Positions 1,519 to 24,654 of a stretch of 42,218 nt of DNA are shown one piece after another (positions within the stretch are counted from its first letter, which is position 1; each line of letters starts with the position of its first letter). The position numbers and the translations under genes are program-made. Under the pieces are notes generated by a model. The model was not told the DNA's origin. It saw nothing but the letters and a program-made list of their open reading frames with translations, and ran no database searches. This DNA comes from a virus. The stretch spans positions 1 through 42,218 of the IMG/VR virus record IMGVR_UViG_3300009537_000049; one strand, written 5' to 3'.

Positions 1519-1540
1519 TAAACATGAAAGGATCGAAAAC

Positions 1541-3322: not shown

Positions 3323-3333
3323 AAAGATTTTTG

Positions 3334-3361
3334 TTGACATAACTTTATTCAAGACTATAAT
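3334..3361 (+). promoter_or_regulatory. sigma70-type promoter P2 (replication operon)
   Basis: TTGACA (3334-3339), a 16-nt spacer, then a perfect TATAAT (3356-3361). Confidence 0.8.
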
Positions 3362-5987: not shown

Positions 5988-5997
5988 GGATCAAACA

Positions 5998-6108
5998 ATG
6001 AATTGGCTCTCACCAAAAACCCTTGAATCTTTTATTCCGGTGCTCTACATCACGACCTTCGTGTTCTACGTTTTTGTTATCTGGTGTCTACAGAGGAGGG
6101 GGAGATGA
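5998..6108 (+). CDS. possible small membrane peptide (36 aa)
   Basis: The ATG is 7 nt after GAGGA. It has one hydrophobic span, FIPVLYITTFVFYVFVIWCL. Its TGA overlaps the ATG of the next gene (ATGA). It is below the ORF-track size cut-off. Confidence 0.4.
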   Translation: MNWLSPKTLESFIPVLYITTFVFYVFVIWCLQRRGR

Positions 6109-6509: not shown

Positions 6510-6510
6510 A

Positions 6511-6723
6511 TTGACTAAACCTATAGAATACCGCGGCAAAAAGTACGATGTCAAGGTGACGGAGCGCGAAGGATCGGACGGCGTTCTGGAAACGCACGTT
6601 GACTATGCGCCGCACAAGAAGCCCGGCTTAAGCCGGTACGTCAAAGCATTCTACTGTTTGCGTCACGGATGGCAGGAATGTCAAGGCAGACGAGGATGCC
6701 AGAAATGCAGGGACGACAGATGA
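6511..6723 (+). CDS. hypothetical protein (70 aa) with a Cys/His-rich C-terminus
   Basis: TTG start directly after the upstream stop. Its TGA overlaps ATG 6720 of the helicase gene. The C-terminus reads CLRHGWQECQGRRGCQKC. Confidence 0.4.
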   Translation: MTKPIEYRGKKYDVKVTEREGSDGVLETHVDYAPHKKPGLSRYVKAFYCLRHGWQECQGRRGCQKCRDDR

Positions 6724-8042: not shown

Positions 8043-8092
8043 AGTCTTCCCACGAAAAGCGAAGACTCGGAACACAACGAAAGGAAACGAAC

Positions 8093-8455
8093 ATGCTAGA
8101 AGAACAACTGAAGCGGATCGCGGATTCGCTCGAGGCAATCGCGAACGGCCTCTCGAATAAAGGCGGGTTTATTACCGGTCCCCCGCAAACAGCAGGCGGT
8201 GAAGCGCCCGCGCCCGTGAAACCCCGTACGTCGAAGAAGACAGCAACGCCCGTCCCCGCCCATCAGCCGGATCCGGCTGCTGAAGCCGTGACCAAAGACG
8301 ATCTCACGGACATGCTTCGTGAAGTCGTGCGCGTGAAGAGCGCGGATGTTGCCAAAGGGGTGTTGGCGAAATTCGGGGCTGATCGAATCAGCGCCGTGGA
8401 CGAAGCGCAGTACCCGAAACTCTACAACGAACTCAAGACGGTGGCCGGTGGCTAA
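8093..8455 (+). CDS. hypothetical protein (120 aa) with a Pro/Ala-rich linker
   Basis: ATG 8093 follows ACGAAAGGAAACGAAC. The ORF-track start at 8039 overlaps the helicase stop. Confidence 0.6.
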   Translation: MLEEQLKRIADSLEAIANGLSNKGGFITGPPQTAGGEAPAPVKPRTSKKTATPVPAHQPDPAAEAVTKDDLTDMLREVVRVKSADVAKGVLAKFGADRISAVDEAQYPKLYNELKTVAGG

Positions 8456-9689
8456 ACACTCACCCATCAGCGCATCCACCGCTCACAGATGGTTCGCGTG
8501 TCCGGGCAGCGTCGAGCTTTCCAAGTCGGCGCCGCCGCAGAAGCAGTCCGTTTATGCTCTGCAAGGATCCGCGGCGCATTGGGTGATCGAGCAGATACTG
8601 AAAACCGACAAACCGATCGATATCTATTCCTTCGTCGGAAAAATCTACAAAGACGAGGATTTGGAATACGAGATTCAAGAAGACGATATCGATTCGTGTC
8701 TGGTGTTCGTTGAGCTCATCAACGAAGTACGCGGATCCGCTAAGTACATTCTGCACTCGGAGGCCAAGCTCGACCTTTCCTGTATCTATCCGGTACTGGC
8801 CGGGACTGCGGATGCGATTCTCATCGAATCAAATCTGAAACGCCTCAAAGTGTACGACTACAAACACGGATCCGGCGTGCCGGTGAACGTCGAGAACAAC
8901 AAGCAGTTGTTGTACTACGCGTTGGGCGCGATCAACTACGTCTGCGACAAACACAAGATCGATTATTTGAGCGTCTTGGGATGGGGCCAGACGTTCAAAG
9001 AAGTCGAGATCTCGATCGTGCAGCCGCGCTGCCGACACAAGGACGGCGCTGTGCGTTCGTGGGTTGTGCCATCGGACGTGCTCGACGCGTTTGCCGCGGA
9101 GTTAAAGGAGAAGGCCGCAGCCACGGCGGACAAAAAAGCACCGCTCGTGACCGGATCTCACTGCCGATTTTGCCCCGCACTTGCCATCTGCCCCGCCTTC
9201 ACGAATCAGACATTCGAGTTGGCGCAGGCGGATTTCAAAGCGGTGTCGAGTCCGGTCAATCTCAACTTGCCTGCGCCGCAAGCGCTGACAAAGCCCGAGA
9301 TCGCGAAGATACTCAATTTCGCGGACATGATCTCGGAGTGGTTGAAGGCAGTCGAGGCGCACGCACTTAGTGTCATGGAGCACGGGGAGGAAATGCCGGG
9401 CTTCAAGCTCGTTAAAAAGCGCTCGAACCGTAAGTGGATCGACGAATCAGAAACTGCTGCGACTCTCTCGATGGTGTTGCAGGACGAGGAGATGTACAAA
9501 AAATCTCTTCTTTCTCCCGCACAGATGGAGAAGACGCTCGGCAAGAAACGCAAGGGTATGATTGAGACTCTTGTGATGGTACCCGAGAGCGGAAACACCA
9601 TCGCTCCGGAGCACGATCCGCGCGAGCCGGTCAAGGGATCGGCTGTTGCGGATTTCGAAACGAACGAACAACGAAAGGAACGAACATGA
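8448..9689 (+). CDS. PD-(D/E)XK Cas4-like nuclease (DUF2800-like)
   Basis: GTG 8448 gives the N-terminus AKHSPISASTAHRWFACPGS, which is typical of DUF2800. The C-terminal Cys cluster is HCRFCPALAICP. Its position beside the DUF2815-like SSB and the polymerase matches the known module. Confidence 0.8.
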   Translation: MAKHSPISASTAHRWFACPGSVELSKSAPPQKQSVYALQGSAAHWVIEQILKTDKPIDIYSFVGKIYKDEDLEYEIQEDDIDSCLVFVELINEVRGSAKYILHSEAKLDLSCIYPVLAGTADAILIESNLKRLKVYDYKHGSGVPVNVENNKQLLYYALGAINYVCDKHKIDYLSVLGWGQTFKEVEISIVQPRCRHKDGAVRSWVVPSDVLDAFAAELKEKAAATADKKAPLVTGSHCRFCPALAICPAFTNQTFELAQADFKAVSSPVNLNLPAPQALTKPEIAKILNFADMISEWLKAVEAHALSVMEHGEEMPGFKLVKKRSNRKWIDESETAATLSMVLQDEEMYKKSLLSPAQMEKTLGKKRKGMIETLVMVPESGNTIAPEHDPREPVKGSAVADFETNEQRKERT

Positions 9690-10279
9690 GTATGATTAAA
9701 CTCCTGACACCGGTTTTCCGTGTGTCATTTCCGCAGGTTTTTGAGCCGCGCGCGATTCAGCCCGGCCAGACACCGAAGTACAGCATGACGATGCTCTTTG
9801 ACTTGTCGAAGATCAACACCGACAAGTCGGAAAAGAAGCGTTGGGATGACTTGATCGCGGCGGTGAAGGAAGTCGCGAAAGAGAAATTCCCGAAGGGCAT
9901 TCCGGCAAATATGATGAACCCGTTCCGTGACGGGAAAGAGAAGGAGCAGTATCAGGGATACGGCGCCGGTATCACCTTCGTGAACGCGACCACGACCACG
10001 AGGCCGGGCCTTGTGGATCAGTCGCTTCAGAAGATCATCGCTCCGGAAGAGTTCTACGCCGGGTGCTATGCCCGCGCGACGGTAAACCCGTATGCGTGGT
10101 CGAAAGTAGGGAAGAACGGTGTCTCTCTCGGCCTTCAGAATATTCAGAAGGTTGCAGAAGGCGAGGCGTTCTCCGGCCGGACTCCGGCCGAGGAAGACTT
10201 CTCTGCGCTCGAAAGCGCAGCAGAAGAAACGCCGGGTGACAACTCCGCACCGAGTGTTGCGGAGTCGTTGTTCGGATAA
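9686..10279 (+). CDS. ssDNA-binding protein (DUF2815-like)
   Basis: The N-terminus is LTPVFRVSFPQVFEPRA...KYSMTMLF and the C-terminal tail is acidic. It has the usual synteny between the DUF2800-like nuclease and DNA polymerase A. The ATG is coupled to the upstream stop (ATGA). Confidence 0.7.
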   Translation: MSMIKLLTPVFRVSFPQVFEPRAIQPGQTPKYSMTMLFDLSKINTDKSEKKRWDDLIAAVKEVAKEKFPKGIPANMMNPFRDGKEKEQYQGYGAGITFVNATTTTRPGLVDQSLQKIIAPEEFYAGCYARATVNPYAWSKVGKNGVSLGLQNIQKVAEGEAFSGRTPAEEDFSALESAAEETPGDNSAPSVAESLFG

Positions 10280-10363
10280 AAGCACGCGGGGAACGCCGCC
10301 CATAAGCTAGGCGTGACAGCCGGAGAGACGGCACCACTTAAATAAAAGCAAAAGGAGAAAAGC

Positions 10364-10675
10364 ATGAGAGAGAAAATCGGACTGTACGCAGCCGCGCTAT
10401 TGATTGCGGCCTTTGTATTCTCGGCCCCCTGCATCGCCGGAGAAAAAAAAGAAGCCCCCGAGAAGCCGCCCACGACTGTTGAACTCGTGGACAAGCAGCT
10501 TGTGGCCGCGCGCGCGAGGCATAACAAAATCGTGGAAGCCATCAACTTCACGCAGGCGCGTCTCGATCTTCTGAAAAACGAATATCAGAAGGTGTTGGGT
10601 GAAATGGCCGGTCTTGAGAACTTCAAGAAGTCGCTCGCAGAGCCGGAGAAAAAAGAGGAAAATAAAAAAGCGTGA
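10364..10675 (+). CDS. exported coiled-coil protein (103 aa)
   Basis: Strong AAAGGAGAAAAG RBS. The hydrophobic leader LYAAALLIAAFVFSAPCIAG is followed by a Lys/Glu-rich helical region. Confidence 0.6.
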   Translation: MREKIGLYAAALLIAAFVFSAPCIAGEKKEAPEKPPTTVELVDKQLVAARARHNKIVEAINFTQARLDLLKNEYQKVLGEMAGLENFKKSLAEPEKKEENKKA

Positions 10676-12624
10676 TTTTTTTGGATTTCGAAACCCGCAG
10701 TAATTGTGTTATTCAGGATACAGGCACTCACCGCTATGCAGAGGATCCGTCCACGGACGTTCTCTGCACAGCGTGGGCTGTGGATAAAGGACCGGTAGAG
10801 CTTTGGGTGCCGGGCGAGGCATTTCCAATTCCGATCGGCGTCCTGAAAAAACACAATATCGAGGCCCATTACGTAGGATTCGAGTGCGCGATCTGGAAGA
10901 ACGTGATGGTACGAAAATACGGATGGCCGGAAGTACCGGAAGACAAGTGGCGATGCTCGTCTGCACTCGGCGCTTCGTATGCCCTGCCTCGGGACTTGAA
11001 GCGCGTGGCAATAGCGCTGAACCTGCCAGTCCAAAAAGACATGGACGGCAAGCGCATTATGATGAAGCTCTCCCGCCCTCGAACCAAAGTCAAAAACAAT
11101 CCGGCCGAGCTCTGGAACCACCCGGCACACGACTTTCGAAAGCTCTACGAATACTGCAGGAACGACGTTGAGACGGAGAGAGCCATCCACTACCGCCTTC
11201 GGCCGCTCCCGGCCCTAGAACAGGAGATTTGGGCACTAGATCAACGTATTAACGAGCGGGGAGTCCGGGTTGACATGCCCGCTGTAAACGCGGCGCTCCG
11301 GTTTATGGATGTAACTTCACGCAGACTGCTTGAAGAATTTAAGAAGATAACCGGTCTTGATAGCCCGGGGCAGATTGCCAAGTTCCTGAAGTGGATCGAG
11401 ACACAAGGGATAAGGATCAAAACCCTGACCAAGAACGATGTTATAGCCCTTCTAGCAGAGCGGGATTTAAGCGTAGGGCTGCGCAGGGCGCTTGAGATCA
11501 GGCAGTCCCTTGCCAAGACCAGTACCGCCAAATATGAGGCTGTACGAGCTTCTATCTGCAAAGACGGGCGCCTGCGGGGGCTCTTGATGTATCACGGGGC
11601 GTCGACAGGGCGTTGGACGGGACAGCTCGTGCAGCCGCAGAACTTCCCGAAGAACACTTTCAAGGGGGATCTCAATACCTATTTTGAGATCTTGAAGCGC
11701 GGCGAGCTGGATGCTTTCGAGCTCTGCTATCCGGATGTCATGCACGCTCTCTCGAAGACCATCCGCGGGATCTTTATACCTTCAGAGGGGCATGTGTTCT
11801 TCGGCGGGGACTACTCGGCTATCGAAGCGCGGGTGCTCTTCTGGCTCGCCGGAGAGAAGCACGGGCTTGCCATGTTCCGGGAGAATCAGGACATCTACAA
11901 GGATCTGGCGGCCACCATTCACGGCGTGCCGTTTGAGAAGGTGACGAAAGAACAGCGTGAGCTTGGCAAGCGCGGGATCCTCGGTGCCGGATATGGCATG
12001 GGCAAGGACAAATTCCGGCAGACATGTTGGGACTTTGCGCGTATCAGAATATCAGAAGAGCTTGCCGAACGCGCCATCACCGCGTACCGCGGTAAGTATT
12101 ATTCTGTCTTTACGATGTGGCGGAACCAAGAGATGGCCGCTTTAGAGGCCGTACGGACGCGGAAAGCTGTCCGCTGCGGTAAAGTCACGTGGGGCGTTCA
12201 CGATGGATTTCTTTTTTGCAAGCTCCCATCCGGCCGGTGTCTGGCCTATTATGATCCCAAGATCGAGATCCGCGAAACTCCGTGGGGGGAGAAGAAAGAT
12301 TCCGTCACGTACATGACCATCAACCCCAAGACAAAAGAATGGATGCGCGATCATACGTATGGAGGGAAGATCACAGAGAATTTGTGCCAAGCGGTCGCGC
12401 GCGATATCATGGCGGAAGCGATGTTGCGGTGTGAAGAAGCAGGGTTCAAAGTGGTACTTTCTGTGCACGATGAACTGCTGACCGAAACGGAATATAAATT
12501 GAAATTCTGGAAACCGAAAGACCACATTGTTCTTTTCGAAATATTGATGGCGCGCCTTCCGGCATGGGCCGAAGGACTCCCTATCAAAGCGGAAGGGTGG
12601 ACCGGGGATAGGTATGTCAAGTGA
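10672..12624 (+). CDS. family A DNA polymerase with a 3'-5' exonuclease domain
   Basis: Exo I is FLDFETRS, motif A is GGDYSAIEARVLFWLAG, motif B is RELGKRGILGAGYGMG and motif C is LSVHDELL. Confidence 0.92.
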   Translation: MIFLDFETRSNCVIQDTGTHRYAEDPSTDVLCTAWAVDKGPVELWVPGEAFPIPIGVLKKHNIEAHYVGFECAIWKNVMVRKYGWPEVPEDKWRCSSALGASYALPRDLKRVAIALNLPVQKDMDGKRIMMKLSRPRTKVKNNPAELWNHPAHDFRKLYEYCRNDVETERAIHYRLRPLPALEQEIWALDQRINERGVRVDMPAVNAALRFMDVTSRRLLEEFKKITGLDSPGQIAKFLKWIETQGIRIKTLTKNDVIALLAERDLSVGLRRALEIRQSLAKTSTAKYEAVRASICKDGRLRGLLMYHGASTGRWTGQLVQPQNFPKNTFKGDLNTYFEILKRGELDAFELCYPDVMHALSKTIRGIFIPSEGHVFFGGDYSAIEARVLFWLAGEKHGLAMFRENQDIYKDLAATIHGVPFEKVTKEQRELGKRGILGAGYGMGKDKFRQTCWDFARIRISEELAERAITAYRGKYYSVFTMWRNQEMAALEAVRTRKAVRCGKVTWGVHDGFLFCKLPSGRCLAYYDPKIEIRETPWGEKKDSVTYMTINPKTKEWMRDHTYGGKITENLCQAVARDIMAEAMLRCEEAGFKVVLSVHDELLTETEYKLKFWKPKDHIVLFEILMARLPAWAEGLPIKAEGWTGDRYVK

Positions 12625-12974
12625 GGTCCGCCACACAACGCACGCTCGCGCTGTTGCGCGAAAGGGGGTACTTGCCTTATGTTGTTGAGACTTGGAACGC
12701 TTACGCAAGAGTTAGAAAAGATCTCTTTGGCTTCATTGATATCGTCGCTCTGCACCCTAAAGAACCCGGCGTTCTTGCTGTCCAGAGTACAGTCGGATCC
12801 CATCTGGCAGAACGAGTCAAAAAAGCAGAAGCCCTCCCCGCGTATCATCTCTGGATCTCACAAGGCAACCCTGTTGAATTCATCGCATGGCGTAAAATAA
12901 AATCGGACGCCAAACCTAAGCGGAAGGTCTGGCGCCCGATTGTCAGGCGTATTGCGTTCGCAGATCTTCTTTAG
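12621..12974 (+). CDS. small nuclease-like protein (Hjc/PD-(D/E)XK-like fold, tentative)
   Basis: 117 aa. LLRERGYLPYVVE...RKDLFGFIDIVAL...VLAVQST resembles small phage resolvase/endonuclease families, but canonical catalytic residues are not all evident. It is the last gene of the replication operon. Confidence 0.5.
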   Translation: MRSATQRTLALLRERGYLPYVVETWNAYARVRKDLFGFIDIVALHPKEPGVLAVQSTVGSHLAERVKKAEALPAYHLWISQGNPVEFIAWRKIKSDAKPKRKVWRPIVRRIAFADLL

Positions 12975-14074
12975 GTCGTCTGCACCGCTGTTCTGGAAGT
13001 TTCGACCCACTGCGTCCCATCACTCTTGAACGTCGCAGAGTAGACATCTGCTTCTAAATTAGCAAGCGTCAGAGTCCCCGTCGAAAGTATATTCGTCCCG
13101 AACGTGATGACTTCATCCCCGGATCCGCTCGTATCCGTAACAAAGATGATCGTCATCTCGTCACCGGCCGCACCCGCGCCGGAAGCGTTGATGGTCTGAT
13201 CTTCGTTATCGGTCGTGATCGTATCCGTAAACACGGCATGACCGGGTTGAACTGTAAGGGTCACAGTTGTGCCGGGCGTCAATGCCGTTGTTCCAGAGGA
13301 CAAATGAGCCACACCGGACTGGTCAGGAAGCGTCCAAGTGCGATCCGCTGTCACATCCGTAGGAACGAGGGAACCCTCGAAGCCGTCAGCCGTGGCTCCT
13401 TCGAACAAGATTCCGTTCGAGATGCCCGTCACTGCGTTCGCTGCATCGACGGCGTTCGTGGTCAGCGCACTCGTCATAAACGCGCTGTCAGCACCATTAT
13501 CCGGAATACTGATCGTCTGGTCAGCGGTCGCGTCAACGGGAGAGATGGTCGTCTCGAACCCGTCAGCCGTTGCACCTTCCAAAACGATTCCATTAGATAC
13601 CGCCCACACGCTATTCGCTGCGTCGATGTTATTGGTCGTAAGTGTAGAACCGACCAAAGCATAGTTGACAGCAAAATCCGGAAGCGTAGCCGTCGAATCA
13701 GCCGTAGGATCCGTGATCCCGAGCTTTAATTCAAACGCGTCTGCAGTCGCACCTTCAAACGTGATTGAATCTGCATTGAAGTGAACCGTATCCGCCGCCG
13801 CATCACCTAACACCACCGCACCGTTGGCAGTCAGTGTCGTAAACGTACCGGCTGCCGGTGTGGTGCCGCCTATCACCGCACCATCAATCGTACCCGCAGA
13901 AAGCACGATCGATTCAAAATCAATGTTGCCGGAACCGTCAATCGTGACGCCATCCCGGAGATTGATTTTGTGGAATTGCCCTTTGTTCGTTCCGTTCTGG
14001 CTGATCTGGATACTGGCAAATGCGGGCGTCGCGAACACCAGTAGCAAGAGAGCGAGAATTGTCGTTTTTTTCAT
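12971..14074 (-). CDS. secreted fibre/adhesin-like repeat protein (367 aa)
   Basis: The signal peptide is MKKTTILALLLLVFATPAFA. IGGTTPAAGTFTTL is present. There are three tandem units of about 50 aa (FEGATADxFE...D.TAD.T...PD). The RBS AAAAGGAGAAAAG is strong. Confidence 0.7.
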   Translation of the reverse strand: MKKTTILALLLLVFATPAFASIQISQNGTNKGQFHKINLRDGVTIDGSGNIDFESIVLSAGTIDGAVIGGTTPAAGTFTTLTANGAVVLGDAAADTVHFNADSITFEGATADAFELKLGITDPTADSTATLPDFAVNYALVGSTLTTNNIDAANSVWAVSNGIVLEGATADGFETTISPVDATADQTISIPDNGADSAFMTSALTTNAVDAANAVTGISNGILFEGATADGFEGSLVPTDVTADRTWTLPDQSGVAHLSSGTTALTPGTTVTLTVQPGHAVFTDTITTDNEDQTINASGAGAAGDEMTIIFVTDTSGSGDEVITFGTNILSTGTLTLANLEADVYSATFKSDGTQWVETSRTAVQTT

Positions 14075-14154
14075 TTCGCTTTTCTCCTTTTTGCTTCGTT
14101 ATCGCTGACGACTACCGCACCTACACCCGTCTGTCAGCCCTCGTGGTGTAAGAT

Positions 14155-14517
14155 TTAGATTTTCCATCCAGTCTTGTTGAATCTGTCCACGACCGGTCGG
14201 ATCATGGCATTTATGATACCACGAAAAATCTTCTCTTCGGTCTCCTCACCGATGAACGGAAGATCAATCAACTGATTGATCTTCTTGACCACGGTATCTT
14301 TCAAAGCATCGAGGACCATCGCGTGTTTGTCTTCGCCCGATAGAACCACATCGACTTCTTTAAGTCCTTTCGAGATTTCCTCTGTGTAGAAGACAGCCGC
14401 CCGCACCAGATCTTTCAAAGTTTGCCACATCTGGCCGAGATTCTTTGACTTCAGCGCTTCTCCAAATGCGTGAACAGCCCCGCCAATCTTACCGAAAAGC
14501 TCCTTTATAAAATCCAT
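14155..14517 (-). CDS. hypothetical protein (120 aa)
   Basis: The ORF tiles tightly with its neighbours. The region SGEDKHAMVLDALKD...IDLPFIGEETEEKIF loosely recalls the soluble domain of LL-H-type holin family proteins (weak, from memory). Confidence 0.55.
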   Translation of the reverse strand: MDFIKELFGKIGGAVHAFGEALKSKNLGQMWQTLKDLVRAAVFYTEEISKGLKEVDVVLSGEDKHAMVLDALKDTVVKKINQLIDLPFIGEETEEKIFRGIINAMIRPVVDRFNKTGWKI

Positions 14518-14518
14518 G

Positions 14519-14692
14519 TCATTCTCCTTTTTTGCCGAACAGTTTGTCCTTCCATTGTTTCACAACCGAGCTGTGGTCGAACCACTTGAGCCACGGCCCT
14601 TTCGTGGTCTTGAACATCTTCGCGGATTCTTTCTCGCTTACTTCGACAACCTCGCAGCCACGCTTGGCTCTCTTTCTTTTGGCCTCACCCAT
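14519..14692 (-). CDS. possible small basic protein (57 aa)
   Basis: Hand-translated as MGEAKRKRAKRGCEVVEV...KQWKDKLFGKKGE. Its ATG overlaps the upstream gene end by 8 nt, and its stop lies 1 nt before the next ATG. It fills the only gap in the gene tiling. Confidence 0.4.
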   Translation of the reverse strand: MGEAKRKRAKRGCEVVEVSEKESAKMFKTTKGPWLKWFDHSSVVKQWKDKLFGKKGE

Positions 14693-14993
14693 TTGGATAA
14701 GCCCGGGCCTTTACATCTGCAGCCCACTGTGTGATTTCCGGCAAAAGATCCTGAAGTGCTGTTATATCATCGTCACTGTCTGTATAGCACCCCTCTGCCA
14801 TTTCTTTGCAGAAGTTGAAGACCGGCCCCCGGGAGATCCGGACCGCGCGCTTTCCGTCGCCGGTGTTATCGGAGACCTGACCGCGCACCTCTCGAGTGAG
14901 CATGCGTCCGTCGATTTTCTCGTCCGCTTTATTGATCCCAAACTCAACGAGGTTGTTTTTGATCGCATCTTTTATACCATCAAAGAGTCCCAT
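14685..14993 (-). CDS. hypothetical protein (102 aa)
   Basis: ORF track. It tiles with its neighbours. No family recognised. Confidence 0.5.
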   Translation of the reverse strand: MGLFDGIKDAIKNNLVEFGINKADEKIDGRMLTREVRGQVSDNTGDGKRAVRISRGPVFNFCKEMAEGCYTDSDDDITALQDLLPEITQWAADVKARAYPNG

Positions 14994-15225
14994 GTTTGTC
15001 CCTCCTGTCTGGTCTTCTGAAGTAATCTTGAGCTATGTCTTTCCAAATTATAATAAACTGTCCGATAAAAAACACCACAAGCTCTTTATATTCAGGCCAA
15101 GCCAGATCTATAATTTTAACAGCGATCGTGCATCCGGTCAGCGTAATCACAAGCGCCATCAAGAATCTCGCGCTTGTGACCTTTTCAACCGCGCGATGAG
15201 CAAGCCCAACCCAAAAATCTGTCAT
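14980..15225 (-). CDS. two-TM membrane protein, holin candidate (81 aa)
   Basis: Hydrophobic spans FLMALVITLTGCTIAVKII and LVVFFIGQFIIIW, with a charged C-terminus RRPDRRDKH. Confidence 0.5.
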   Translation of the reverse strand: MTDFWVGLAHRAVEKVTSARFLMALVITLTGCTIAVKIIDLAWPEYKELVVFFIGQFIIIWKDIAQDYFRRPDRRDKHGTL

Positions 15226-15467
15226 CAGAATTCCGGGACTATCCCTTTCTCGAGCTCCGCTTCTTCTTCGTCCGTGAGCGGCCTCGCGTGGAGTTCTTCA
15301 CTGCCCGGGACCCAATTCGAGATTTTGGGCAGGACGTACTTGCGATATAAGTCAATAGCCGCCTCTTCGTCCGGTGCGATAAAAGAAGTGTTCTCCCGTA
15401 CATCAGAAACGATCTCTCCTTGTGGATTTTTAATGGTCATCTTGCATTGAACGATGTATCTTTTCAC
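15225..15467 (-). CDS. hypothetical protein (80 aa)
   Basis: ORF track. It tiles with its neighbours. Confidence 0.5.
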   Translation of the reverse strand: MKRYIVQCKMTIKNPQGEIVSDVRENTSFIAPDEEAAIDLYRKYVLPKISNWVPGSEELHARPLTDEEEAELEKGIVPEF

Positions 15468-15476
15468 GGCAACCCC

Positions 15477-15755
15477 CTACTTTTTAACTTCTTCAATGAG
15501 CATCTTATAAAACTCGTCCCGCTTCTGTTCCCGCTGTTCTATAAACTCAAATTCCTTTTCGTGAATCATAATCTTCTTGTCGTGGTCTGTCACCATCTCC
15601 TGCTGTGCCGTCACAATATTGGTCAGTTGTACAGAAGCAGACTCCAAATCCTCCACCTTTTCCGGAGCAGATAAGACACGAGCCACATTTGGGACAACGA
15701 TGGCCGACAACAAAACCGTCGTTCCGATACCAAGAAGCCATTTGTTCATAGACAC
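15477..15755 (-). CDS. N-terminally anchored coiled-coil membrane protein (92 aa, i-spanin-like topology)
   Basis: TM span LLGIGTTVLLSAIVV followed by a helical Glu/Lys-rich region. It shares the motif HDKKIMIHE with the 95-aa neighbour (HTKKIMEHE). The start is GTG 15755 or ATG 15749. Confidence 0.6.
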   Translation of the reverse strand: MSMNKWLLGIGTTVLLSAIVVPNVARVLSAPEKVEDLESASVQLTNIVTAQQEMVTDHDKKIMIHEKEFEFIEQREQKRDEFYKMLIEEVKK

Positions 15756-15818
15756 CCTCGCATCATCACCAAGAGAGTCACCAAAGCAAGTATGCCCGCC
15801 AAAAAAAGAAGCGCCACG

Positions 15819-16106
15819 TTACTTCCCACTTCTAATGAATACTTCGTGTTCCATAATTTTTTTCGTATGCTCATCTATTCTTACCCAAATAGCTTTGTGT
15901 TCTCGGTCGGCATCTGCTCGGTTCATAACGCTGTTATTGTAGTAGCCAATAGTATTAGTCAGCTTTTCGATTTCCTTCTGCATGAAGCCGATAGTTGTAT
16001 TGACCTTCGACATCCACCAGATACTTAGCCCCGCATGGGACACGATAAAAAGAATTATCGTGACCATAGCGCTTATCCATACGGCACTCGGCGGGGTTTG
16101 GATCAC
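15819..16106 (-). CDS. N-terminally anchored coiled-coil membrane protein (95 aa), paralogue of 15477-15755
   Basis: TM span VWISAMVTIILFIVSHAGLSIWW followed by a helical region. It is coupled to the upstream gene by ATGA. Confidence 0.6.
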   Translation of the reverse strand: MIQTPPSAVWISAMVTIILFIVSHAGLSIWWMSKVNTTIGFMQKEIEKLTNTIGYYNNSVMNRADADREHKAIWVRIDEHTKKIMEHEVFIRSGK

Positions 16107-16435
16107 CGCATTCCTTCCATTTCCACACGCTTGGCATCACGAGCCGATTTCGCCGCGTTGTCCTCGGCGTAGTTGGACCCGTAGGCATAGGAGAGCTTCA
16201 CAAGAAACGCTTTATAAAACTCCTCCTTCGTCTGCGGGTTTGGAATCTGTGACTCCTCGCCCGTTTCCTCATCCACGACAGTCAGAGTCGCTTGATATCC
16301 CTCGCGATAGGCCACGGCATCGATGACGGGTTGCTTCATGTCATCGGACATCGTGAGCTTCACGTCCCACGCGTGGGCGACGGCGCAAAAGAGAAGCGCT
16401 ATCAGGGTGAACCAGTAAACGTACAGCTTCTTCAT
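16103..16435 (-). CDS. secreted small protein (110 aa)
   Basis: The signal peptide is MKKLYVYWFTLIALLFCAVAHA, with a predicted AHA cleavage site. Confidence 0.6.
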   Translation of the reverse strand: MKKLYVYWFTLIALLFCAVAHAWDVKLTMSDDMKQPVIDAVAYREGYQATLTVVDEETGEESQIPNPQTKEEFYKAFLVKLSYAYGSNYAEDNAAKSARDAKRVEMEGMR

Positions 16436-16445
16436 GGTGCGCTCC

Positions 16446-17705
16446 TTATATTAACGTGATGATGCGTTTAAGCGGTGACGCTTGCTGTTTCGACATGGCG
16501 ATGTAGATGATTTGACGGCTCGTGCCATCCACCTTCTCGTTGTCTATTGAAAATTGGTCGACCCCTAAAGATACCATGTCCGCTTCCGTGTCTGTGTTTT
16601 GGTCTATTGAAATAGTGCGGAAAATTTCATCGTTGTTAATCCATCCTTCTGCATCAGTCCCCGGAGAAATCCCGTCTTGGTCGCCATTGACGATGGTGGC
16701 TCTCTCTGTGGACGAGACCCCCGCACCAAAGCTGATGGTCGCGTTGTTTTGAATGGAAGCTGATGCCGCAAAGCCATAGGTTGCAAAAATAACGGCTTCG
16801 GGGTCAAAGCCAACGCTTGAGATTGTCTGCGTTCCTGTTGATGTAGACTGGTTAAACGTCCCCACAACTGCGTCTGTCATTTTCATAGCGATAAAAAATA
16901 CCGTGACTCCCGTTGCCGGTGCTGTCGTGATATTGATATCGAATCCATCCGAATCCGTTGCGTCAAGGTCTGCGGCGAATTGAACAGCAGGAGAACTACC
17001 CGGAGTCAGCCCAAGAATACAGGCGGTCGTGAGCTGTGTCGAATTGGCCTCCACTGGGTCAGTTCCATTTGTATCGGCGTTGGCGAGGGCCGCAAAGTTC
17101 GAGGTTCCAGAAGCCGCACCGAATGACATCTGAAGGTCTGCTGTGATGGAATCTTCAACCGAGTCTCTTGCGGCGTTGAAGAATAGAATAAGATTTGGCT
17201 CGAAACCGACCCCGCTTATGGCTTGAACACCCGTAGAAGTATTGAGGTCAAAAGAGCCGATATAGTGGCCTTCGAGGTTCCCAAGTGCTATATACCCAAT
17301 AAGATTTGCGTCACCATCTGCTGTGCTAATGTTGAACGTAAATCCATCAGAATCCATAGAGGTAAAGTCTGAAATAAAATTACTCGCTTCTGTTCGTATG
17401 GACTGAACAGACGTTTGGAAATGGTCTCTTTGGTCAGAGTTATCCGAAGCAAATGCTGATAGAGCAAATTCTGCGGTTGAGTCGGTTGCGGCTCCTACAT
17501 TATGCCTGTAACTTCTGCGACGAGTTTCATCTGTCCTATTATTATTGAAGAAAATAACAACCTGCGGTTCAAAGCCAATGCCTGTTACCGCCTGCGACCC
17601 AGTGCCAGTGCTAGTCGCAAAGGTTCCCACACTCACATTTAACGAAGCCCAAGCTGTCGAGGTGAGGAATGAGAAAATCGTTATGAGAGCGAGAATCCGC
17701 TTCAC
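16446..17705 (-). CDS. secreted protein with three tandem ~125-aa beta-rich domains (419 aa)
   Basis: The signal peptide is MKRILALITIFSFLTSTAWA. The unit VGTF..STSTG.Q.I.GVGFEP..+IFF...SFGAA...D.DGF...YIA is repeated three times. Confidence 0.7.
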   Translation of the reverse strand: MKRILALITIFSFLTSTAWASLNVSVGTFATSTGTGSQAVTGIGFEPQVVIFFNNNRTDETRRRSYRHNVGAATDSTAEFALSAFASDNSDQRDHFQTSVQSIRTEASNFISDFTSMDSDGFTFNISTADGDANLIGYIALGNLEGHYIGSFDLNTSTGVQAISGVGFEPNLILFFNAARDSVEDSITADLQMSFGAASGTSNFAALANADTNGTDPVEANSTQLTTACILGLTPGSSPAVQFAADLDATDSDGFDINITTAPATGVTVFFIAMKMTDAVVGTFNQSTSTGTQTISSVGFDPEAVIFATYGFAASASIQNNATISFGAGVSSTERATIVNGDQDGISPGTDAEGWINNDEIFRTISIDQNTDTEADMVSLGVDQFSIDNEKVDGTSRQIIYIAMSKQQASPLKRIITLI

Positions 17706-18082
17706 TCGTAAATCCCCTTTAGTTTCGTAGCAAGATCACGGACTTTCTGGTCAAGCGTCCCGTCCGCTTCCATGTCGGTCAAGTGAGCCACAAGTTCACG
17801 GCGTTTCTTGATAGCCGGAAACCTGTTTTCCTCTGCGTCCGTGATGTCTCTAGCGGTCGGGCGAATCATCGTGGTGTTATCAACATCGAGCTTCCACGGC
17901 CCGCCCGCTAAGTCGATCTTTCGAGCCATAGTGACTACACTCTCTGAAGGACGAACATCAGGCGAAGGGTTTGTCGTGACTCCACGCACCACTCTTGTCT
18001 GCGTGTCGATGATAAGATGGTCTTGGGCGAAAGCCGAGGCCGTCAGCATAATCCCCACAATCGTTAAAGCAATCGTTCTCAT
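17702..18082 (-). CDS. secreted small protein (126 aa)
   Basis: The signal peptide is MRTIALTIVGIMLTASAFA. Confidence 0.6.
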   Translation of the reverse strand: MRTIALTIVGIMLTASAFAQDHLIIDTQTRVVRGVTTNPSPDVRPSESVVTMARKIDLAGGPWKLDVDNTTMIRPTARDITDAEENRFPAIKKRRELVAHLTDMEADGTLDQKVRDLATKLKGIYE

Positions 18083-18092
18083 TCAATCCTCC

Positions 18093-21000
18093 TTAGGGCA
18101 GTTGGAAAGTAAGTTCAACAAGCAAGCCCTTCGCGGGCGTTGTATGAACTGCGTCCACATCCACTCGAATCGAGTCTGCTGTCGCCACGTCATCCGTTGC
18201 GCCGTTAATAACGGCAGGCGTAGCCGCTGTTGAAGAATCGACTTCGGCAGAGTCAATGGTGATAACCGTCGAGAGCATGTCAGCGGTGTCCGTGACATTG
18301 TGAACCTGAATATCTACCGTTCCTGTCGTGCCTGCCGTCTGGACTTGTGCGGCGACAGCGACAAGGTTGTAGCCATTGAGGACGGCCGGGACTCTCCAGA
18401 AGATACTACCCGCTCCATCACCCGTTGCGTTGTCCTCCGAGTCATCAAAGACGAGAAGCGATACAACACGCTTGCCATAGTCCGACCCCGCTAGGGCGTC
18501 GGGGGTGACGATTCTTGCGGTATCGGTTCCCGTTGTGACTTCGGAAGCAATGGCGGCTTCTGCGCACCCTTGCGTCGTCGTGGTGGCTGTGGCGCATGAG
18601 AGGGTATCATCCGTTAAGACGATAGGAGCTGTGACCGCAAGGTTTGTATCGGCTGAAATATCAATGCTTGAAAGAGTTGTAGTGGTATGAGAATGAGAGT
18701 CGTCACCAACCGTCGTTGCGCCAGTATTATCGACCGTGACATCACCCGACATCGCCACAGGATTAAAGTTCGTCCCATCCGCAACGAGGATGAAAGCATC
18801 CGTGTTCGTTCCCATAAAGAGGTCGTCCCCGGAGATGGTCATGTCGCCGTCAATCTGCATGTCCCCGTCTATCTCAAATCGCCCAAGCTGTGTGCTTGCC
18901 GAGTCACGCCATTCTTGGAGATTCGCGGATTGAGAGGTTGCGCCCTCTACAATGAACTGCACATCCGTCGCTGTGTGACCGTCTATGGTGACGAAGGAGT
19001 TGGCAGGGACTGTGGTGGAGCCAAGCACCAAAGCATCTTCTCCCGCATCAACAAAAAACAAATCATTAATAGTATCCCCATTTACTGTAAAGTTTTTGTC
19101 CAATCTGTCCGGATTAAATTCAAATAAAGAGCTATCAAAATACAGGCTTGTTTGGGCGTTACTCGTTCTAAACTTTACACCGGAAGTCTCAAATTGGAAT
19201 TGAGCTTGCGGGCCACCTCCATCCCAAAGAAGCAAAAAGTCATTTCCACCATGACTAAAAATTAGATTAGTTCCATCTGTATACATACCTGTATCTGGAT
19301 TGCTCAAAAAACTATGAGATGGTAAGGCCTCTGTCCCATCCGCCGCTAGAATCTGTGTGAGTGTTATCTGATGAGCATCAGTCCCTGCGGAGTCTTCGAC
19401 TGTGAGCATGGGTGCAGACTGTGCCGCTGCACCTTGTAGAATAAGAGCGGTATCTGTGGCGGTGTGGTTGTCTATGGTGACAAAAGAGTTGGCGGGGACA
19501 GTGGAGGAGCCAAAAACTATTGCTTCTTCAGAAGAATCTGAAAAAAAGAGGGTCTCAACATCACCAAAGATTGTAAAATCAACACCTGGGTTTTTGTCAG
19601 AATTTATCTCATGATCTAAACCGCTTGTAATTCTACTGACAACACTCCCATTGTGAGAGAATTTAACATCAGACCCACCCCAATATCTAACAGCCGTAGT
19701 GCCCCCCGAATTTGTTAACTCAAATCTTCTAATGCCCATTGTCGCAAATGATAACGAATCATTACTACCGGGGATAGCATATATACCTGCGTCAGACATA
19801 TTTAGAAAAGAATATGACGGAGTTCCAACCGCCCCATCCGGAGCCAAAAACTGCGTAGGCGTGAGTTGCCAGAGGTCAGTGGCGGAGGAGTTCTCACCCG
19901 TGATGAGTGGAGAGGTCTGTGTTGAGTGGGCTTGAATGACAACCTGCTCAACATCCGCATGACCGTCTACGTTAAGAAGACCGCCGAGGTCGGTGGAGGA
20001 GCCGATGACAACTTCGTCACCGGTGGTCGTAAGGTGGGCATACGTTCCCGCGTCCGTCCAAATACTCCCCCCGTTGGCGGCGGGAAGCACACCCGTGACG
20101 TCCCCAGTGGCAAGGTCAACGGGATCTTCGGAGTAGTCGAGGAGGACATTCACTTCACCTGCGGGAGAGGAAGTGAGGTCGAATCCCGCGCCGAAGTCGA
20201 GGTTGGCCGTTGCGGCGTCAACGGTAGAGTCGGCTTCTTCAAGCGTTAAAGCGCCGACACCGCCACCCTGCGCGGCAAATTCAGAAATACGCCATCTGGA
20301 AGAAGTGCCATCATACCAAAGGCCGACAGTCTGATCGGGGGCGATTGTAATGTCCGCATTGAGAGCAAAGCGGTTAGCGGCAGTTGAAGAAGCACTCTCG
20401 TCTTTAAGAACAATGTCATTCGCCCCGACGTTCATTATGAGAACAGGCCTTCCGTTTGCTCCACCGGCAAGACCTGTGATGTCCCTCGAAGCGTCCGTGT
20501 CAAGACGAAGAACAGATGCAGTAGAAAGTCCTGTAGGATTGTAGTCGTCTGCCTGTGCGGTGATCTGTGCAGGGCTGATATCCCCGGATAAGAGCCACGA
20601 CTCCTGAATGTCCGTAACCCCTGAAAGGTCAGCGTCACTTATGGCAGGAGCTGCATTAAATACCCACAGTCCGGTGCCTGTTTCGTCCGTTACCTTGCCT
20701 GCCCAAAAAGCGGAATTTTGAGCGGTGATGGTCGCTGCGACCGAACCGGGACCCGTGGCTGTCACTTCACCGGTGAGATCGGTTATATAATTCCCGGCGG
20801 CTTGATAATCCGTTCCGGCAACTGCGATTGAAAGAACGCCCGTTCCGGTTGTGTTTTTGACTAAGCCGGTTCCAAGAAGCGAGAGAGCCTGTTCACCGGT
20901 CAACGTACCATTAGAGGTCTGTGTTATATAGGTAGCGTCAACAGGTGCCCCGGCACTTCCCGGACCGATCAGAACGGCTGTGCTGCCATCACCGCTATAT

Positions 21001-21188
21001 AAAAGGTCGTCATCAACGTCCCAACACAACTCGCCATCTTTGATGTGATTGGTACAAGACAAAGCAAGCGCGGGTGGGAATTTGGTACGATAGCCGGAAT
21101 TGAAGGCGGGATCGGCCTGTGCACGCGAGGACACAAAAATAGCGGACGCCAAAATCAGAGAAGCGAAAAGAACTCTCGAAGTCCGCAT
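18093..21188 (-). CDS. tail-fibre/receptor-binding-like repeat protein with an N-terminal Sec signal peptide (1031 aa)
   Basis: ATG 21188 follows AAAGGGGGGTG and gives MRTSRVLFASLILASAIFVSSRAQA. There are about 2.5 tandem ~160-aa repeats containing the fibre motif PS.SF...D.G.Y and ..SFVTID.HTATD. The ORF-track start at 21236 would overlap the upstream gene. Confidence 0.7.
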   Translation of the reverse strand: MRTSRVLFASLILASAIFVSSRAQADPAFNSGYRTKFPPALALSCTNHIKDGELCWDVDDDLLYSGDGSTAVLIGPGSAGAPVDATYITQTSNGTLTGEQALSLLGTGLVKNTTGTGVLSIAVAGTDYQAAGNYITDLTGEVTATGPGSVAATITAQNSAFWAGKVTDETGTGLWVFNAAPAISDADLSGVTDIQESWLLSGDISPAQITAQADDYNPTGLSTASVLRLDTDASRDITGLAGGANGRPVLIMNVGANDIVLKDESASSTAANRFALNADITIAPDQTVGLWYDGTSSRWRISEFAAQGGGVGALTLEEADSTVDAATANLDFGAGFDLTSSPAGEVNVLLDYSEDPVDLATGDVTGVLPAANGGSIWTDAGTYAHLTTTGDEVVIGSSTDLGGLLNVDGHADVEQVVIQAHSTQTSPLITGENSSATDLWQLTPTQFLAPDGAVGTPSYSFLNMSDAGIYAIPGSNDSLSFATMGIRRFELTNSGGTTAVRYWGGSDVKFSHNGSVVSRITSGLDHEINSDKNPGVDFTIFGDVETLFFSDSSEEAIVFGSSTVPANSFVTIDNHTATDTALILQGAAAQSAPMLTVEDSAGTDAHQITLTQILAADGTEALPSHSFLSNPDTGMYTDGTNLIFSHGGNDFLLLWDGGGPQAQFQFETSGVKFRTSNAQTSLYFDSSLFEFNPDRLDKNFTVNGDTINDLFFVDAGEDALVLGSTTVPANSFVTIDGHTATDVQFIVEGATSQSANLQEWRDSASTQLGRFEIDGDMQIDGDMTISGDDLFMGTNTDAFILVADGTNFNPVAMSGDVTVDNTGATTVGDDSHSHTTTTLSSIDISADTNLAVTAPIVLTDDTLSCATATTTTQGCAEAAIASEVTTGTDTARIVTPDALAGSDYGKRVVSLLVFDDSEDNATGDGAGSIFWRVPAVLNGYNLVAVAAQVQTAGTTGTVDIQVHNVTDTADMLSTVITIDSAEVDSSTAATPAVINGATDDVATADSIRVDVDAVHTTPAKGLLVELTFQLP

Positions 21189-22522: not shown

Positions 22523-22897
22523 CTACCCCCGTTTCGGAATCAAAAATTCCGCCTGCTCTTGTGTTAGAGGATTCCCGGCGACAAGATTTGCGCGCGCTTC
22601 GTCCGCCAAAATTCTCGAAGCTGATTCTCTTTGTGTGCGTTTGGTTGTCTCCTGTGTATCAGCCACCTGAATTTCTTCTCTTGTCATGTGAACAGCTCTG
22701 CCTTGAACGACCTTAAGATGTTTCGCGGGTAATTCGACGGGTTCATCTTGACTGATGAAAATTCGATTGGGCGCGTCGTCCTCCCAATCTTTCATGTGAT
22801 TATAGGTAGAGGACATATCCGCTCGGTCATCTGTACCTACAGCCCAACCAACAACTTTACCGTCTTCGACTTGAATAAAATACTTGAGATTTTCCAT
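22523..22897 (-). CDS. hypothetical protein (124 aa) downstream of the tail fibre gene
   Basis: ORF track. Its start overlaps the fibre gene stop. The position is compatible with a fibre chaperone, but there is no motif support. Confidence 0.55.
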   Translation of the reverse strand: MENLKYFIQVEDGKVVGWAVGTDDRADMSSTYNHMKDWEDDAPNRIFISQDEPVELPAKHLKVVQGRAVHMTREEIQVADTQETTKRTQRESASRILADEARANLVAGNPLTQEQAEFLIPKRG

Positions 22898-24654
22898 TAT
22901 AAGCTCTCCAAGAATCCACGAAGATAGTGATTCGCCGCGGCCCCGCCGTTACTGTTTGCGTACTCGTAAATTGCGGAGGCATCCAAAGACACCAAACCCA
23001 CCGAGGCACCATTCGGATTACCGGCCCCGCCCTGATCGTCATGGTCTCTGTGAAACAGCACGGCGTCCCCGGTAATCGAAGACCCATTAAGTCTGACGTA
23101 ATGAGAGAGTGTTGATATGCTGTTCTTGTTAATCTGCCCCATGATATCGATCAGCTTACAGACAGCGCCGTTCACAAAAGCCGCACAATTCACGTCTGTG
23201 AATGATGTGGCAGATCCGGCAGATAAAAGTTGAAGCGGAGTATCGAGATAGACCCACTTATCGCGGCCCTTTCCGACAGTGCTGAACTTCACCCATGCGC
23301 TACCCGTCCATCTACGGTGTCCAAGCAGACGTTTTTTATTGTAGCCCGCGGGCATCGTCGGAGAACCGAGCGTCTTTGTGGCCACGATGTCGTCCGTTAA
23401 AACCGCCGTCGAATCTCCGATCGCATAGAAATAAACGAGAACCGGAGAAGCCCCGATAGTTCCGGTGTCCAACATTCCGGCATTCGTACCGGTGGCCCAT
23501 ACAGCGTCAATCTGTTTAGTCATCGCGGCTGTCGCTATATCCACTGCGTCATCATCGCTGCGGGCATAAACTTGGCTGAAATCGATATCGTTCGTAGGAT
23601 CAGATCCGTTGTTGCTTGGGACCCCACCATCCAGATAATTTGTAGGAAGGATAGTCGCGGGAGGCGCGGCAATAAGATCTCCTCTTTGATTCGCGAAAAA
23701 GCCCGTCGTTGTAGAAACCGCGATGAACACCGGCTTTATCACTTGGCCGGGTGTGGAAGGTTCTGTAGTAGTGTATCCTCCGGCGCTTGATGGACTCAAA
23801 AAATACTGCGACCCGGCCACGAGTCCCGAGAAGCCCGTAAAGAAACCCATCAACGTAAGCGTGAAAGTGTCCGAATCCACAACTTCGGTGACAATTCCAA
23901 CAAGCCGGGCATTGGCTGCTGAATCCGCTTGGGCTTTTGCATAGACGCCGCCGGAGAATTTCAAAAGATCGCCCACTACAAAACCATGCGCTACCTGCGG
24001 CACGGATTTTGTGAGAAGTGTGGTTGTGGCCGTCATCTGCGACCACACCCCGGCGATGTCACAGATGTACACACGACCAGTATCGATTGCAAAATAGATA
24101 TCCCCGGCGCCGGGCGAAGCAGCTTTGTCCGTATCGTTGCCACGGCTGATCGTACCCGCATACGACGTTGATGTAATGGCGGACCAATCGAGTTCAGTCG
24201 TCGAATTAGCGTGTAGGAACTTTCCGGTTACAGGAGCGGGGAAAACCAAATCCGCGACCAGACTCGTGACGACCTGTTTTACCGCGCGGTCAATCGCCTC
24301 TTGAAGCTGCTGATCGATCATGCGACCACGATCGAGTTCCTTCTCGATCTGCTCTTCACGCAGGGTTCCGACAGCGGGAATATCAGTGGGTTGGGTTAAA
24401 GGAAGAACACGCTTTATGAGAACATCCTGTGCGGATGTAGGCGCCACCGTGAGCGTGACTGTCCCGCCTTCATTGACAGGATCGATCGCGACCGTGTAAT
24501 CGACGTTCAGAGTCTGAAGCGTCTCAACTCCGGCCGTATCAACCAGATAGACCTCGAGATCCGAGTCGTTGAAGATCTTGAACACGAAGTTGAAGTTGAC
24601 TTCAATCCCGTCGCCGTCAGCACGATTCTTGGTCAGAGTAGAGATTACGGTCAT
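22897..24654 (-). CDS. tail fibre protein (585 aa, no signal peptide)
   Basis: It lies directly after the internal virion protein genes, as in T7-like phages. The N-terminus is an attachment-like domain (GDGIEVNFNFVFKIF...LEVYLVD) and the C-terminus is beta-rich. Confidence 0.65.
   Translation of the reverse strand: MTVISTLTKNRADGDGIEVNFNFVFKIFNDSDLEVYLVDTAGVETLQTLNVDYTVAIDPVNEGGTVTLTVAPTSAQDVLIKRVLPLTQPTDIPAVGTLREEQIEKELDRGRMIDQQLQEAIDRAVKQVVTSLVADLVFPAPVTGKFLHANSTTELDWSAITSTSYAGTISRGNDTDKAASPGAGDIYFAIDTGRVYICDIAGVWSQMTATTTLLTKSVPQVAHGFVVGDLLKFSGGVYAKAQADSAANARLVGIVTEVVDSDTFTLTLMGFFTGFSGLVAGSQYFLSPSSAGGYTTTEPSTPGQVIKPVFIAVSTTTGFFANQRGDLIAAPPATILPTNYLDGGVPSNNGSDPTNDIDFSQVYARSDDDAVDIATAAMTKQIDAVWATGTNAGMLDTGTIGASPVLVYFYAIGDSTAVLTDDIVATKTLGSPTMPAGYNKKRLLGHRRWTGSAWVKFSTVGKGRDKWVYLDTPLQLLSAGSATSFTDVNCAAFVNGAVCKLIDIMGQINKNSISTLSHYVRLNGSSITGDAVLFHRDHDDQGGAGNPNGASVGLVSLDASAIYEYANSNGGAAANHYLRGFLESL

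Follow-up and report, generated by a model that had tools for sequence, protein, structure and literature searches.

Proteins that phages export are usually small exclusion or lysis factors, and the particles of tailed phages are assembled in the cytoplasm. Here we analyze a 42,218-nt stretch of viral DNA (IMG/VR record IMGVR_UViG_3300009537_000049, positions 1 to 42,218; hereafter the window), in which a block of twelve genes, A to L, at 12971-21188 encodes three large fibre-type proteins (A, C and L) and two small proteins (B and D) that all begin with signal peptides. In the reading that we favor, and to which we give about an even chance, A, C and L would be expressed late and exported, and would work on the host envelope as glycan-binding fibres that are not part of the virion.

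Several described systems resemble parts of this arrangement. In the defective prophage PBSX of Bacillus subtilis, the xepA gene is flanked by the tail genes on one side and the holin/lysin genes on the other. Its product XepA (XkdY/P31) is a late, exported protein that is absent from particles and is encoded in the prophage lytic cassette (PMC6834076). The likeness to the block proteins is one of gene position and export only: XepA is a pentameric dumbbell without fibre repeats, encoded by a single gene in a monoderm host, with a function that is still unclear, and Protein Data Bank (PDB) sequence searches with A, B and profiles of C and L found nothing, XepA/YomS homology included. Llp of T5 and Cor of phi80 and N15 are small lipoproteins with a lipobox. 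These phage-encoded, envelope-exported receptor blockers are proposed to stop superinfection and the loss of progeny on receptor in debris, which is the logic favored here for the block; in contrast, A-D and L have sites of the signal peptidase I (SPase I) type and no canonical lipobox, A, C and L are large fibre-type proteins, and a link to a receptor is known only for Llp and Cor. The MAT (mosaic adhesive trimer) proteins of Bdellovibrio bacteriovorus have a Sec signal peptide, a phage-tail-fibre-like trimeric beta-structure and variable C-terminal binding tips; they are mosaic, localise to the surface of the predator, and include one that binds surface glycans (PMC10769870). However, MAT proteins are products of chromosomal genes of a predatory bacterium, not of phage late genes; they share a conserved, beta-rich ~130-amino-acid (aa) N-domain and often an S74 chaperone, whereas Pfam finds no S74 in A, C or L, and a comparison of the block proteins with the solved MAT fragments only gave no sequence match.

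Lambda-type morons (lom, bor, and sodC of Gifsy and Fels) likewise encode signal-peptide proteins amid tail-fibre genes and are variably present among relatives, as is the block. These morons serve the host, being expressed in lysogens from promoters of their own, whereas no separate promoter was found for the block genes and the block proteins are of fibre type. Canonical fibres and tailspikes (T7 gp17, CBA120 TSP4, DUF7483 proteins) share building blocks with L, C and A, but a gp17-type N-terminal attachment domain is matched only by the 585-aa fibre encoded upstream of the block, not by A, C or L. The statement in the original prediction that no described system has this composition was therefore too strong, since XepA (PMC6834076), T5 Llp, the Cor proteins and MAT (PMC10769870) are partial precedents. 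The literature that we searched, of which coverage is incomplete, contains no report of signal-peptide fibres or fibre modules in tailed phages or their late operons.

All twelve minus-strand open reading frames (ORFs) of the block are present, and the five genes that begin with Sec/SPase-I-type signal peptides are as follows:

18093..21188, minus strand: A, a 1031-aa mosaic fibre-type protein
21114-21188, minus strand: predicted signal peptide of A, residues 1-25, MRTSRVLFASLILASAIFVSSRAQA-DP cleavage
17702..18082, minus strand: B, a 126-aa small partner; predicted signal peptide MRTIALTIVGIMLTASAFA, cleaved before QD
16446..17705, minus strand: C, 419 aa; predicted signal peptide MKRILALITIFSFLTSTAWA, cleaved before SL
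16103..16435, minus strand: D, 110 aa; predicted signal peptide MKKLYVYWFTLIALLFCAVAHA, cleaved before WD
12971..14074, minus strand: L, a 367-aa fibre-type protein and last gene of the late operon; predicted signal peptide MKKTTILALLLLVFATPAFA, cleaved before SI

Signal peptides were called by our own rule-based scan together with comparative evidence, rather than by a trained predictor; the pattern taken for a Sec SPase I substrate was a positive n-region, an uncharged h-region of ~7-15 residues and small residues at -3 and -1. All five N-termini show this pattern: the n-region holds 1-2 K/R, the hydrophobic core is 11-16 residues long and uncharged, and A-x-A occupies -3/-1. An AAGGAG/GGGGG-type Shine-Dalgarno site lies 5-9 nt before each of the five starts, and no in-frame start with a Shine-Dalgarno site was found just past the signal peptide of A, B, C, D or L. 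The Joint Genome Institute (JGI) gene caller independently used the 21188 start for A, as the 1031-aa length of the corresponding protein (P0001) shows; the ATG upstream at 21236 has no ribosome-binding site. Under one rule set, signal-peptide-like starts are found in 5 of 13 block genes and in 0 of 32 genes elsewhere in the window (Fisher p = 0.001), a count that takes A at its 21188 start, as the automatic scan took the longer 21236 ORF and left A unflagged. The scan also flagged F, which reads better as a membrane anchor. The five N-termini read exactly as the original prediction had quoted them, with support from their starts, Shine-Dalgarno sites and clustering, and the signal peptides are genuine sequence features.

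Other export routes were considered for the same N-termini. With the lipobox defined as [LVI][ASTVI][GAS]C, A, B, C and L have no Cys at +1, and D has 'LLFC' with F at -1, followed by AVAHA/W (the slash marks the predicted cleavage site), which is not a canonical lipobox. D was accordingly rejected as a lipoprotein or o-spanin, the canonical lipobox being absent. Twin-arginine translocation (Tat) was rejected because the twin-arginine motif was not seen in any of the five signal peptides.

The three large proteins are Thr/Gly/Asp/Ala-rich and internally repeated, and they are built from modules found in ordinary virion fibres, as the original prediction had surmised from their fibre-like appearance. 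In A, the clearest such unit is one ~105-aa Phage_depo_C-like beta-sandwich module (residues ~197-301), through which nearly all of its 494 matches come and which scores as Pfam Phage_depo_C in homologues; the C-terminal ~250 aa of A are common to a signal-less fibre (P0018). About one quarter of the proteins with A's module carry signal peptides. A itself has two Cys-x9-Cys pairs (45/55 and 865/875), and an even, non-zero number of cysteines is found in 25 of 30 signal-peptide proteins with the module, compared with 27 of 90 signal-less ones (p = 4e-7), a bias that is the one expected of proteins that would form disulfides outside the cytoplasm. The module also occurs together with Lcl_C adhesin domains, and in signal-peptide proteins on contigs that resemble conjugative elements. 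On the latter (L008:8001-11396 and L009:8001-12266), signal-peptide fibre-type proteins of 1131-1421 aa stand beside type IV secretion system coupling-protein and relaxase genes, one of them having a Peptidase_S74 chaperone domain; these proteins may be mating or surface adhesins.

L consists of a conserved ~40-aa N-domain, three 'FEGATADxFET...DPTAD' repeats and a ~100-aa C-terminal beta-sandwich. The repeats resemble the gp10-like XD domains of CBA120 TSP4, as well as T4 gp9 and gp10; the AlphaFold2 (AF2) model is confident only in the C-terminal beta-sandwich, and its fold matches are therefore weak. The L family is large, with 3220 matches at E ≤ 0.001 among the 8000 candidates scored, and the n-h-c pattern of the signal peptide is kept in 113 of the best 120 homologues, with predicted cleavage in the family directly before the conserved mature N-domain (AFA/SIQISQNG, AFA/SIEVQEDS, AHA/IGIYEDG). 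Among the closest 17 IMG/VR loci of L, 15 have a signal peptide and 2 an N-terminal transmembrane (TM) anchor, and the 63 weaker, repeat-only matches are signal-less. These signal-less repeat proteins start with domains (e.g. MATRMQQRRGT...) that match positions 1-60 of PHROG tail-fibre/tail-spike families; the mature N-termini of A and L gave no match to PHROG fibre N-terminal domains or to anything else. In A and L, then, the signal peptide stands where signal-less relatives have a conserved N-terminal fibre domain, while in C it is simply added before the conserved domain.

The genomic slot of L homologues varies among T7-like podoviruses. In the window and in two related contigs (L004 and L005) the gene lies at the operon end beside PolA; elsewhere it is found between the capsid and tail-tube genes (L152), upstream of the tail-tube genes (L153, L155, L156), between terminase and portal (L165), or directly after the capsid gene, as in the P0271 contig of an SU10-like phage and in L007, a Mu-like prophage. 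Accessory genes typically move about in this way, although a head-decoration role would fit as well. In the Mu-like prophage (L007:10001-12107), the capsid gene is followed by two genes whose products both have signal peptides: a 515-aa protein with L-type repeats and then a 142-aa protein with a weak DUF6385 match. L-type repeats are also found in metagenome-assembled genomes (MAGs) of many phyla, Bdellovibrionales and bacteria of the candidate phyla radiation (CPR) included.

C carries three ~130-aa, DUF7483-like beta-domains after its signal peptide, and its AF2 model is compact and confident (predicted local distance difference test score 89.8, predicted template-modeling score 0.90). Foldseek matches this model with a probability of 1.0 to a DUF7483 protein of an uncultured phage (TM-score ~0.4) and gives no convincing match in the PDB; the family member P0205 matches PF24299, C itself remaining under the Pfam threshold. 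The stop codon of B overlaps the start of C (GTGA). The B family comprises proteins of ~110 aa with a conserved 'IIHTATRVIRRVT' and is mostly signal-less: most of its 76 matches begin at 'IIHTATRV...', and ~8 have a signal peptide. Similarly, ~90% of the best 120 C homologues lack a signal peptide and begin right at the conserved domain (MALSxKVGSF...). The C genes of the IMG/VR loci are often preceded, within one to a few codons, by an in-frame stop, so that these C homologues are truly signal-less. That homologues might start past the hydrophobic segment, a possibility that the original prediction had raised, is thus true for most of B and C, but with the upstream stops and no alternative starts in the window it reflects a real polymorphism, not an artefact.

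Signal-peptide C is found at five loci (the window, L011, L019, L071 and L232, the last counted among the C loci though its phage nature is not established), and the gene upstream of it also bears a signal peptide in 4 of 4 loci with a readable upstream gene. Pairs of a small partner and C comprise 3 with signal peptides in both, 9 with neither and 0 mixed (p = 0.0045). When the immediate upstream neighbor of C is taken whatever its type, 3 pairs are with/with and 43 without/without, 1 is unreadable because of a contig end, and L232 is a fourth with/with case. Signal peptides switch on and off together across the small-partner/C pair in other phages. Signal-peptide members are scattered over a star-like neighbor-joining tree of the mature C domains, which suggests repeated gain or loss; these trees are weakly resolved, the concordance counts are small and several of the context loci are incomplete.

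Individual loci illustrate this switching. In an SU10-like phage (L010) a 598-aa fibre, B and C follow one another and are all signal-less; in a temperate phage (L011) a 599-616-aa fibre, B and C all have signal peptides and are followed by an E-like protein, and the two fibres are 56% identical across their last 157 residues. In another SU10-like phage (L019), signal peptides are present on C, on a 148-aa 'YRKxGG' partner and on a 356-aa protein before them, and the same partner type is signal-less beside signal-less C in L035, L036 and L041. In L232 (2651-17262), C (420 aa) belongs to a run of five signal-peptide proteins of 807, 139, 834, 420 and 1150 aa, and two genes past this run another one, of 759+ aa, is encoded; its sister contig L233 has an inserted HNH endonuclease. 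On two further viral contigs (L022:4681-5994 and L023:2908-4419), signal-less C-family genes adjoin genes for depolymerase-like proteins that look like right-handed beta-helices of the pectate-lyase type, start directly after a signal peptide and have no virion-binding domain; judged on sequence, these may be secreted phage depolymerases.

The window itself is best described as a phage genome with an internal block. An exact 99-bp overlap between its ends (1-99 and 42120-42218) indicates a complete genome of ~42.1 kb, circularly assembled or terminally redundant, and the 12-gene block is therefore internal to the phage. Plus-strand genes at 1-12974 form a replication module (SpoVG, primase-helicase, SNF2 helicase, DUF2800 nuclease, Enc34-type single-stranded DNA-binding protein, PolA), and the minus strand from ~42,000 down to 12971 is a single long late gene array in the order terminase, portal, scaffold, major capsid, tail tubular A and B, internal virion proteins and gp17-type fibre. 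The phage is a T7/HTVC010P-type podovirus, with the block at the far end of its late operon. Its nearest deposited relative by capsid protein is the uncultured spring-water podovirus MW202485.1 (57% identity), from which the block is absent, followed by HTVC010P-type pelagiphages. The 585-aa fibre at 22897-24654 is signal-less, as had been noted before, and has a T7 gp17-type N-terminal domain (PHROG 1e-22). BLASTP finds no similarity between this fibre and A, C or L, which speaks against the suggestion that the exported proteins are paralogues of the phage's own fibre. The late array ends at the following feature:

12901..12941, minus strand: terminator-like hairpin with a 17-bp stem (9 G-C pairs) and then a T-run, 30 nt past the L stop; probable end of the late transcript

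The nearest relatives that we found are the two ~42-kb contigs L004 and L005, in which PolA is ~61% identical and the replication genes are syntenic. In both, a signal-peptide L homologue closes the late genes at exactly this place, facing PolA and a 117-121-aa gene that converge on it. L and some small membrane proteins are the only block content common to the window and these contigs: A, B, C and D are absent from both, and upstream of L there are instead a collagen-like fibre, a 572-580-aa glycosyltransferase-like protein and small membrane proteins. A-B-C-D-E are closely packed in the window, with two GTGA stop/start overlaps; the block as such is not kept as a unit in L004 and L005, and B-C, a separate module, recurs in unrelated phages. 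The twelve genes are thus a mosaic of fibre A, the conserved B-C pair with D, the small membrane proteins E, F and H, which resemble a lysis set, and L. Glycosyltransferase-like genes (L004:2057-3775, L005:2147-3889, and one on the P0132 contig) lie in late or structural regions of related phages near signal-peptide fibre genes, and their products might glycosylate fibres or envelope components.

Database searches placed few further limits on function. Pfam, NCBIfam and PADLOC searches of the block proteins gave no meaningful match, anti-phage defence and exclusion families of PADLOC included, and PHROGs gave weak matches only. In tblastn searches against cultured phages there was no relative of C or D, and A and L gave only module- or repeat-level matches. 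Direct IMG/VR searches for relatives of A and C found none, a C-family profile being needed, and no homologues of D were found.

How might fibre-type proteins with export signals be of use to a phage? Late in infection, the Sec system would translocate the proteins and signal peptidase I would cleave them, so that they would fold or trimerise in the periplasm or envelope instead of the cytoplasm. The mature proteins might then bind, and possibly cleave, glycans such as the host's own surface polysaccharides or receptors. As a result, receptors could be masked or removed, or surface layers loosened, on the doomed cell and on debris; this would spare progeny, restrict superinfection and help release. 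Because the families work both with and without a signal peptide, their site of action must lie outside the cytoplasm either way. Signal-less forms would reach this site at lysis, on virions or free, and signal-bearing forms earlier. The presence of a signal peptide in place of the fibre N-domain in A and L, together with the depolymerase-like proteins of L022 and L023, favors action on the envelope apart from the virion. The original prediction had proposed that the block is a non-virion system acting on the cell envelope: an extracytoplasmic and probably non-virion role is indeed the best reading, but not a coherent 12-gene system.

Several observations weigh against an envelope role apart from the virion, and many of them would suit the view that A, C and L belong to the virion as accessory fibres or receptor-binding proteins: folding would take place in the periplasm, with disulfides and together with their partners, and they would dock on otherwise complete particles in the lysate or once holin lesions and lysis bring the compartments together. 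We regard this, the main alternative, as doubtful, with nonetheless an appreciable chance of being right. Signal-peptide genes P0271 and P0340 sit just past the capsid gene, the signal-peptide fibre gene P0004 fills the tail-fibre slot of the siphovirus L003, and in the 10 kb of the L011 tail region that is visible, each of the two fibre-like genes has a signal peptide; structural slots are likewise held by signal-peptide members in L007 and L019. The signal-less fibre-B-C module occupies the tail-fibre place in SU10-like phages (L010), and such modules are probably virion parts, so that the exported versions could be too; the fibres of L010 and L011 are homologous. Compartment concordance is not absolute, with 3 loci in which a large signal-peptide protein precedes a signal-less C. 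If the host is diderm, Sec reaches the periplasm only, and no catalytic domain, no receptor-binding homology to the phage's own fibre and no anti-phage family was detected. All three proteins consist of virion-fibre modules, and the domains of L are like gp10/TSP4-XD domains, which in CBA120 are docking hubs; fibres and tailspikes add in vitro to T4 and P22 particles, and the co-export of a small partner suits folding and assembly outside the cytoplasm. On the other hand, neither A nor L has a recognised virion-anchor domain after its signal peptide, the position of L varies as that of an accessory gene, the phage already has a signal-less gp17-type fibre, and secreted fibres would diffuse off hosts without an outer membrane. 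We know of no tailed phage that assembles its fibres via export. A broader form of the same idea, which we hold only tentatively and think rather unlikely, is that some tailed phages send accessory receptor-binding fibres and their small partners through Sec, mature them in the periplasm and arm their particles at or after lysis, the module switching between cytoplasmic and exported forms by gain or loss of the signal peptide.

A different use of exported fibres would be as moron-type surface adhesins, whose target would not be the phage's own receptor but the adhesion of the infected or lysogenic cell to other cells or to surfaces. The MAT fibres, Sec-exported, phage-fibre-like and shown on the cell surface (PMC10769870), provide a model for such proteins; the occurrence of A's module with Lcl_C domains and beside relaxase and coupling-protein genes, and of L-type repeats in MAGs of many phyla, Bdellovibrionales and CPR bacteria among them, points in the same direction. 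We nevertheless consider this explanation unlikely, as the late operon of a seemingly lytic phage leaves little time for a benefit from adhesion, neither a route over the outer membrane nor a signal for surface anchoring was identified, and the solved MAT fragments showed no sequence link. It is highly improbable, finally, that the hydrophobic N-termini are not export signals at all, being either mis-called starts or uncleaved tethers by which fibres in the cytoplasm are kept at the inner membrane while they assemble. The absence of the segment from most B and C homologues would agree with this, but the stops directly upstream in the signal-less homologues mean that the two forms genuinely differ, and strong ribosome-binding sites are found at the signal-peptide starts and none downstream. 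Moreover, positive n-regions and A-x-A c-regions predict translocation and cleavage of the passenger, the n-h-c pattern is kept despite sequence divergence in the L family (113/120), and the signal-peptide forms show the even-cysteine bias. Envelope action by exported non-virion fibres remains the reading that we prefer for A, C and L.

The remaining genes of the block lie between D and L:

15819..16106, minus strand: E, 95 aa, N-terminal TM segment and coiled coil (phrog_1009), holin- or spanin-like
15477..15755, minus strand: F, 92 aa, N-terminal TM segment and coiled coil, weak phrog_1009 match
15225..15467, minus strand: G, 80-aa soluble protein, no homologues detected
14980..15225, minus strand: H, 81 aa, two hydrophobic segments and a highly charged C-terminus
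14685..14993, minus strand: I, 102-aa soluble protein
14519..14692, minus strand: J, 57-aa basic protein
14155..14517, minus strand: K, 120-aa protein

The three membrane-anchored products that had been predicted in addition to the five exported ones correspond to E and F, each with one N-terminal TM segment, and to H, with two hydrophobic segments, the first flagged by the 18-residue scan and the second our reading of the sequence. H fits a class II holin by architecture only, with no family match, and an E homologue stands directly after C in L011, where it heads a run of small membrane proteins and a lipoprotein. Most simply, E, F and H are an ordinary lysis cassette, outside the export function. 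No endolysin or muralytic domain was recognised in the window proteins scanned with Pfam, PHROGs and NCBIfam, and no muralytic Pfam family in the precomputed hits of the visible L004 and L005 genes. A 42-aa ORF with one TM segment (15746-15874, minus strand; MSIRKK...LLVMMRGCL) fills the gap between E and F, overlaps both, and could be an additional small membrane protein of the lysis cassette.

Three further features of the window are recorded here. The stop codons of L and the convergent plus-strand 117-aa gene overlap (12901-12974), and the terminator hairpin lies within the coding 3' end of the plus-strand gene. A SpoVG-family protein is encoded early (922-1239, plus strand; Pfam 5.8e-12), which is unusual for a phage and may hint at the host. 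The longest ORF of a 249-aa internal-virion-type protein (30731-31480, minus strand) overlaps the tubular-B gene (31179-33743, minus strand) by ~300 nt; its PHROG matches are confined to residues 103-245, so translation probably begins further downstream.

In this phage, export signals are found on fibre-type proteins of full size and on their partners, and unrelated phages have the same modules both with and without such a signal. If the envelope role is true, these proteins would represent an unrecognised class of phage tools for masking receptors, clearing surface polysaccharide and easing release, and secreted glycan binders or enzymes could be drawn from them. If they are instead on virions, part of phage assembly would take place outside the cytoplasm. 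In both cases, pipelines that annotate such genes as 'tail fibre' and predict host range on that basis may misread non-virion proteins; the L family is a large one.

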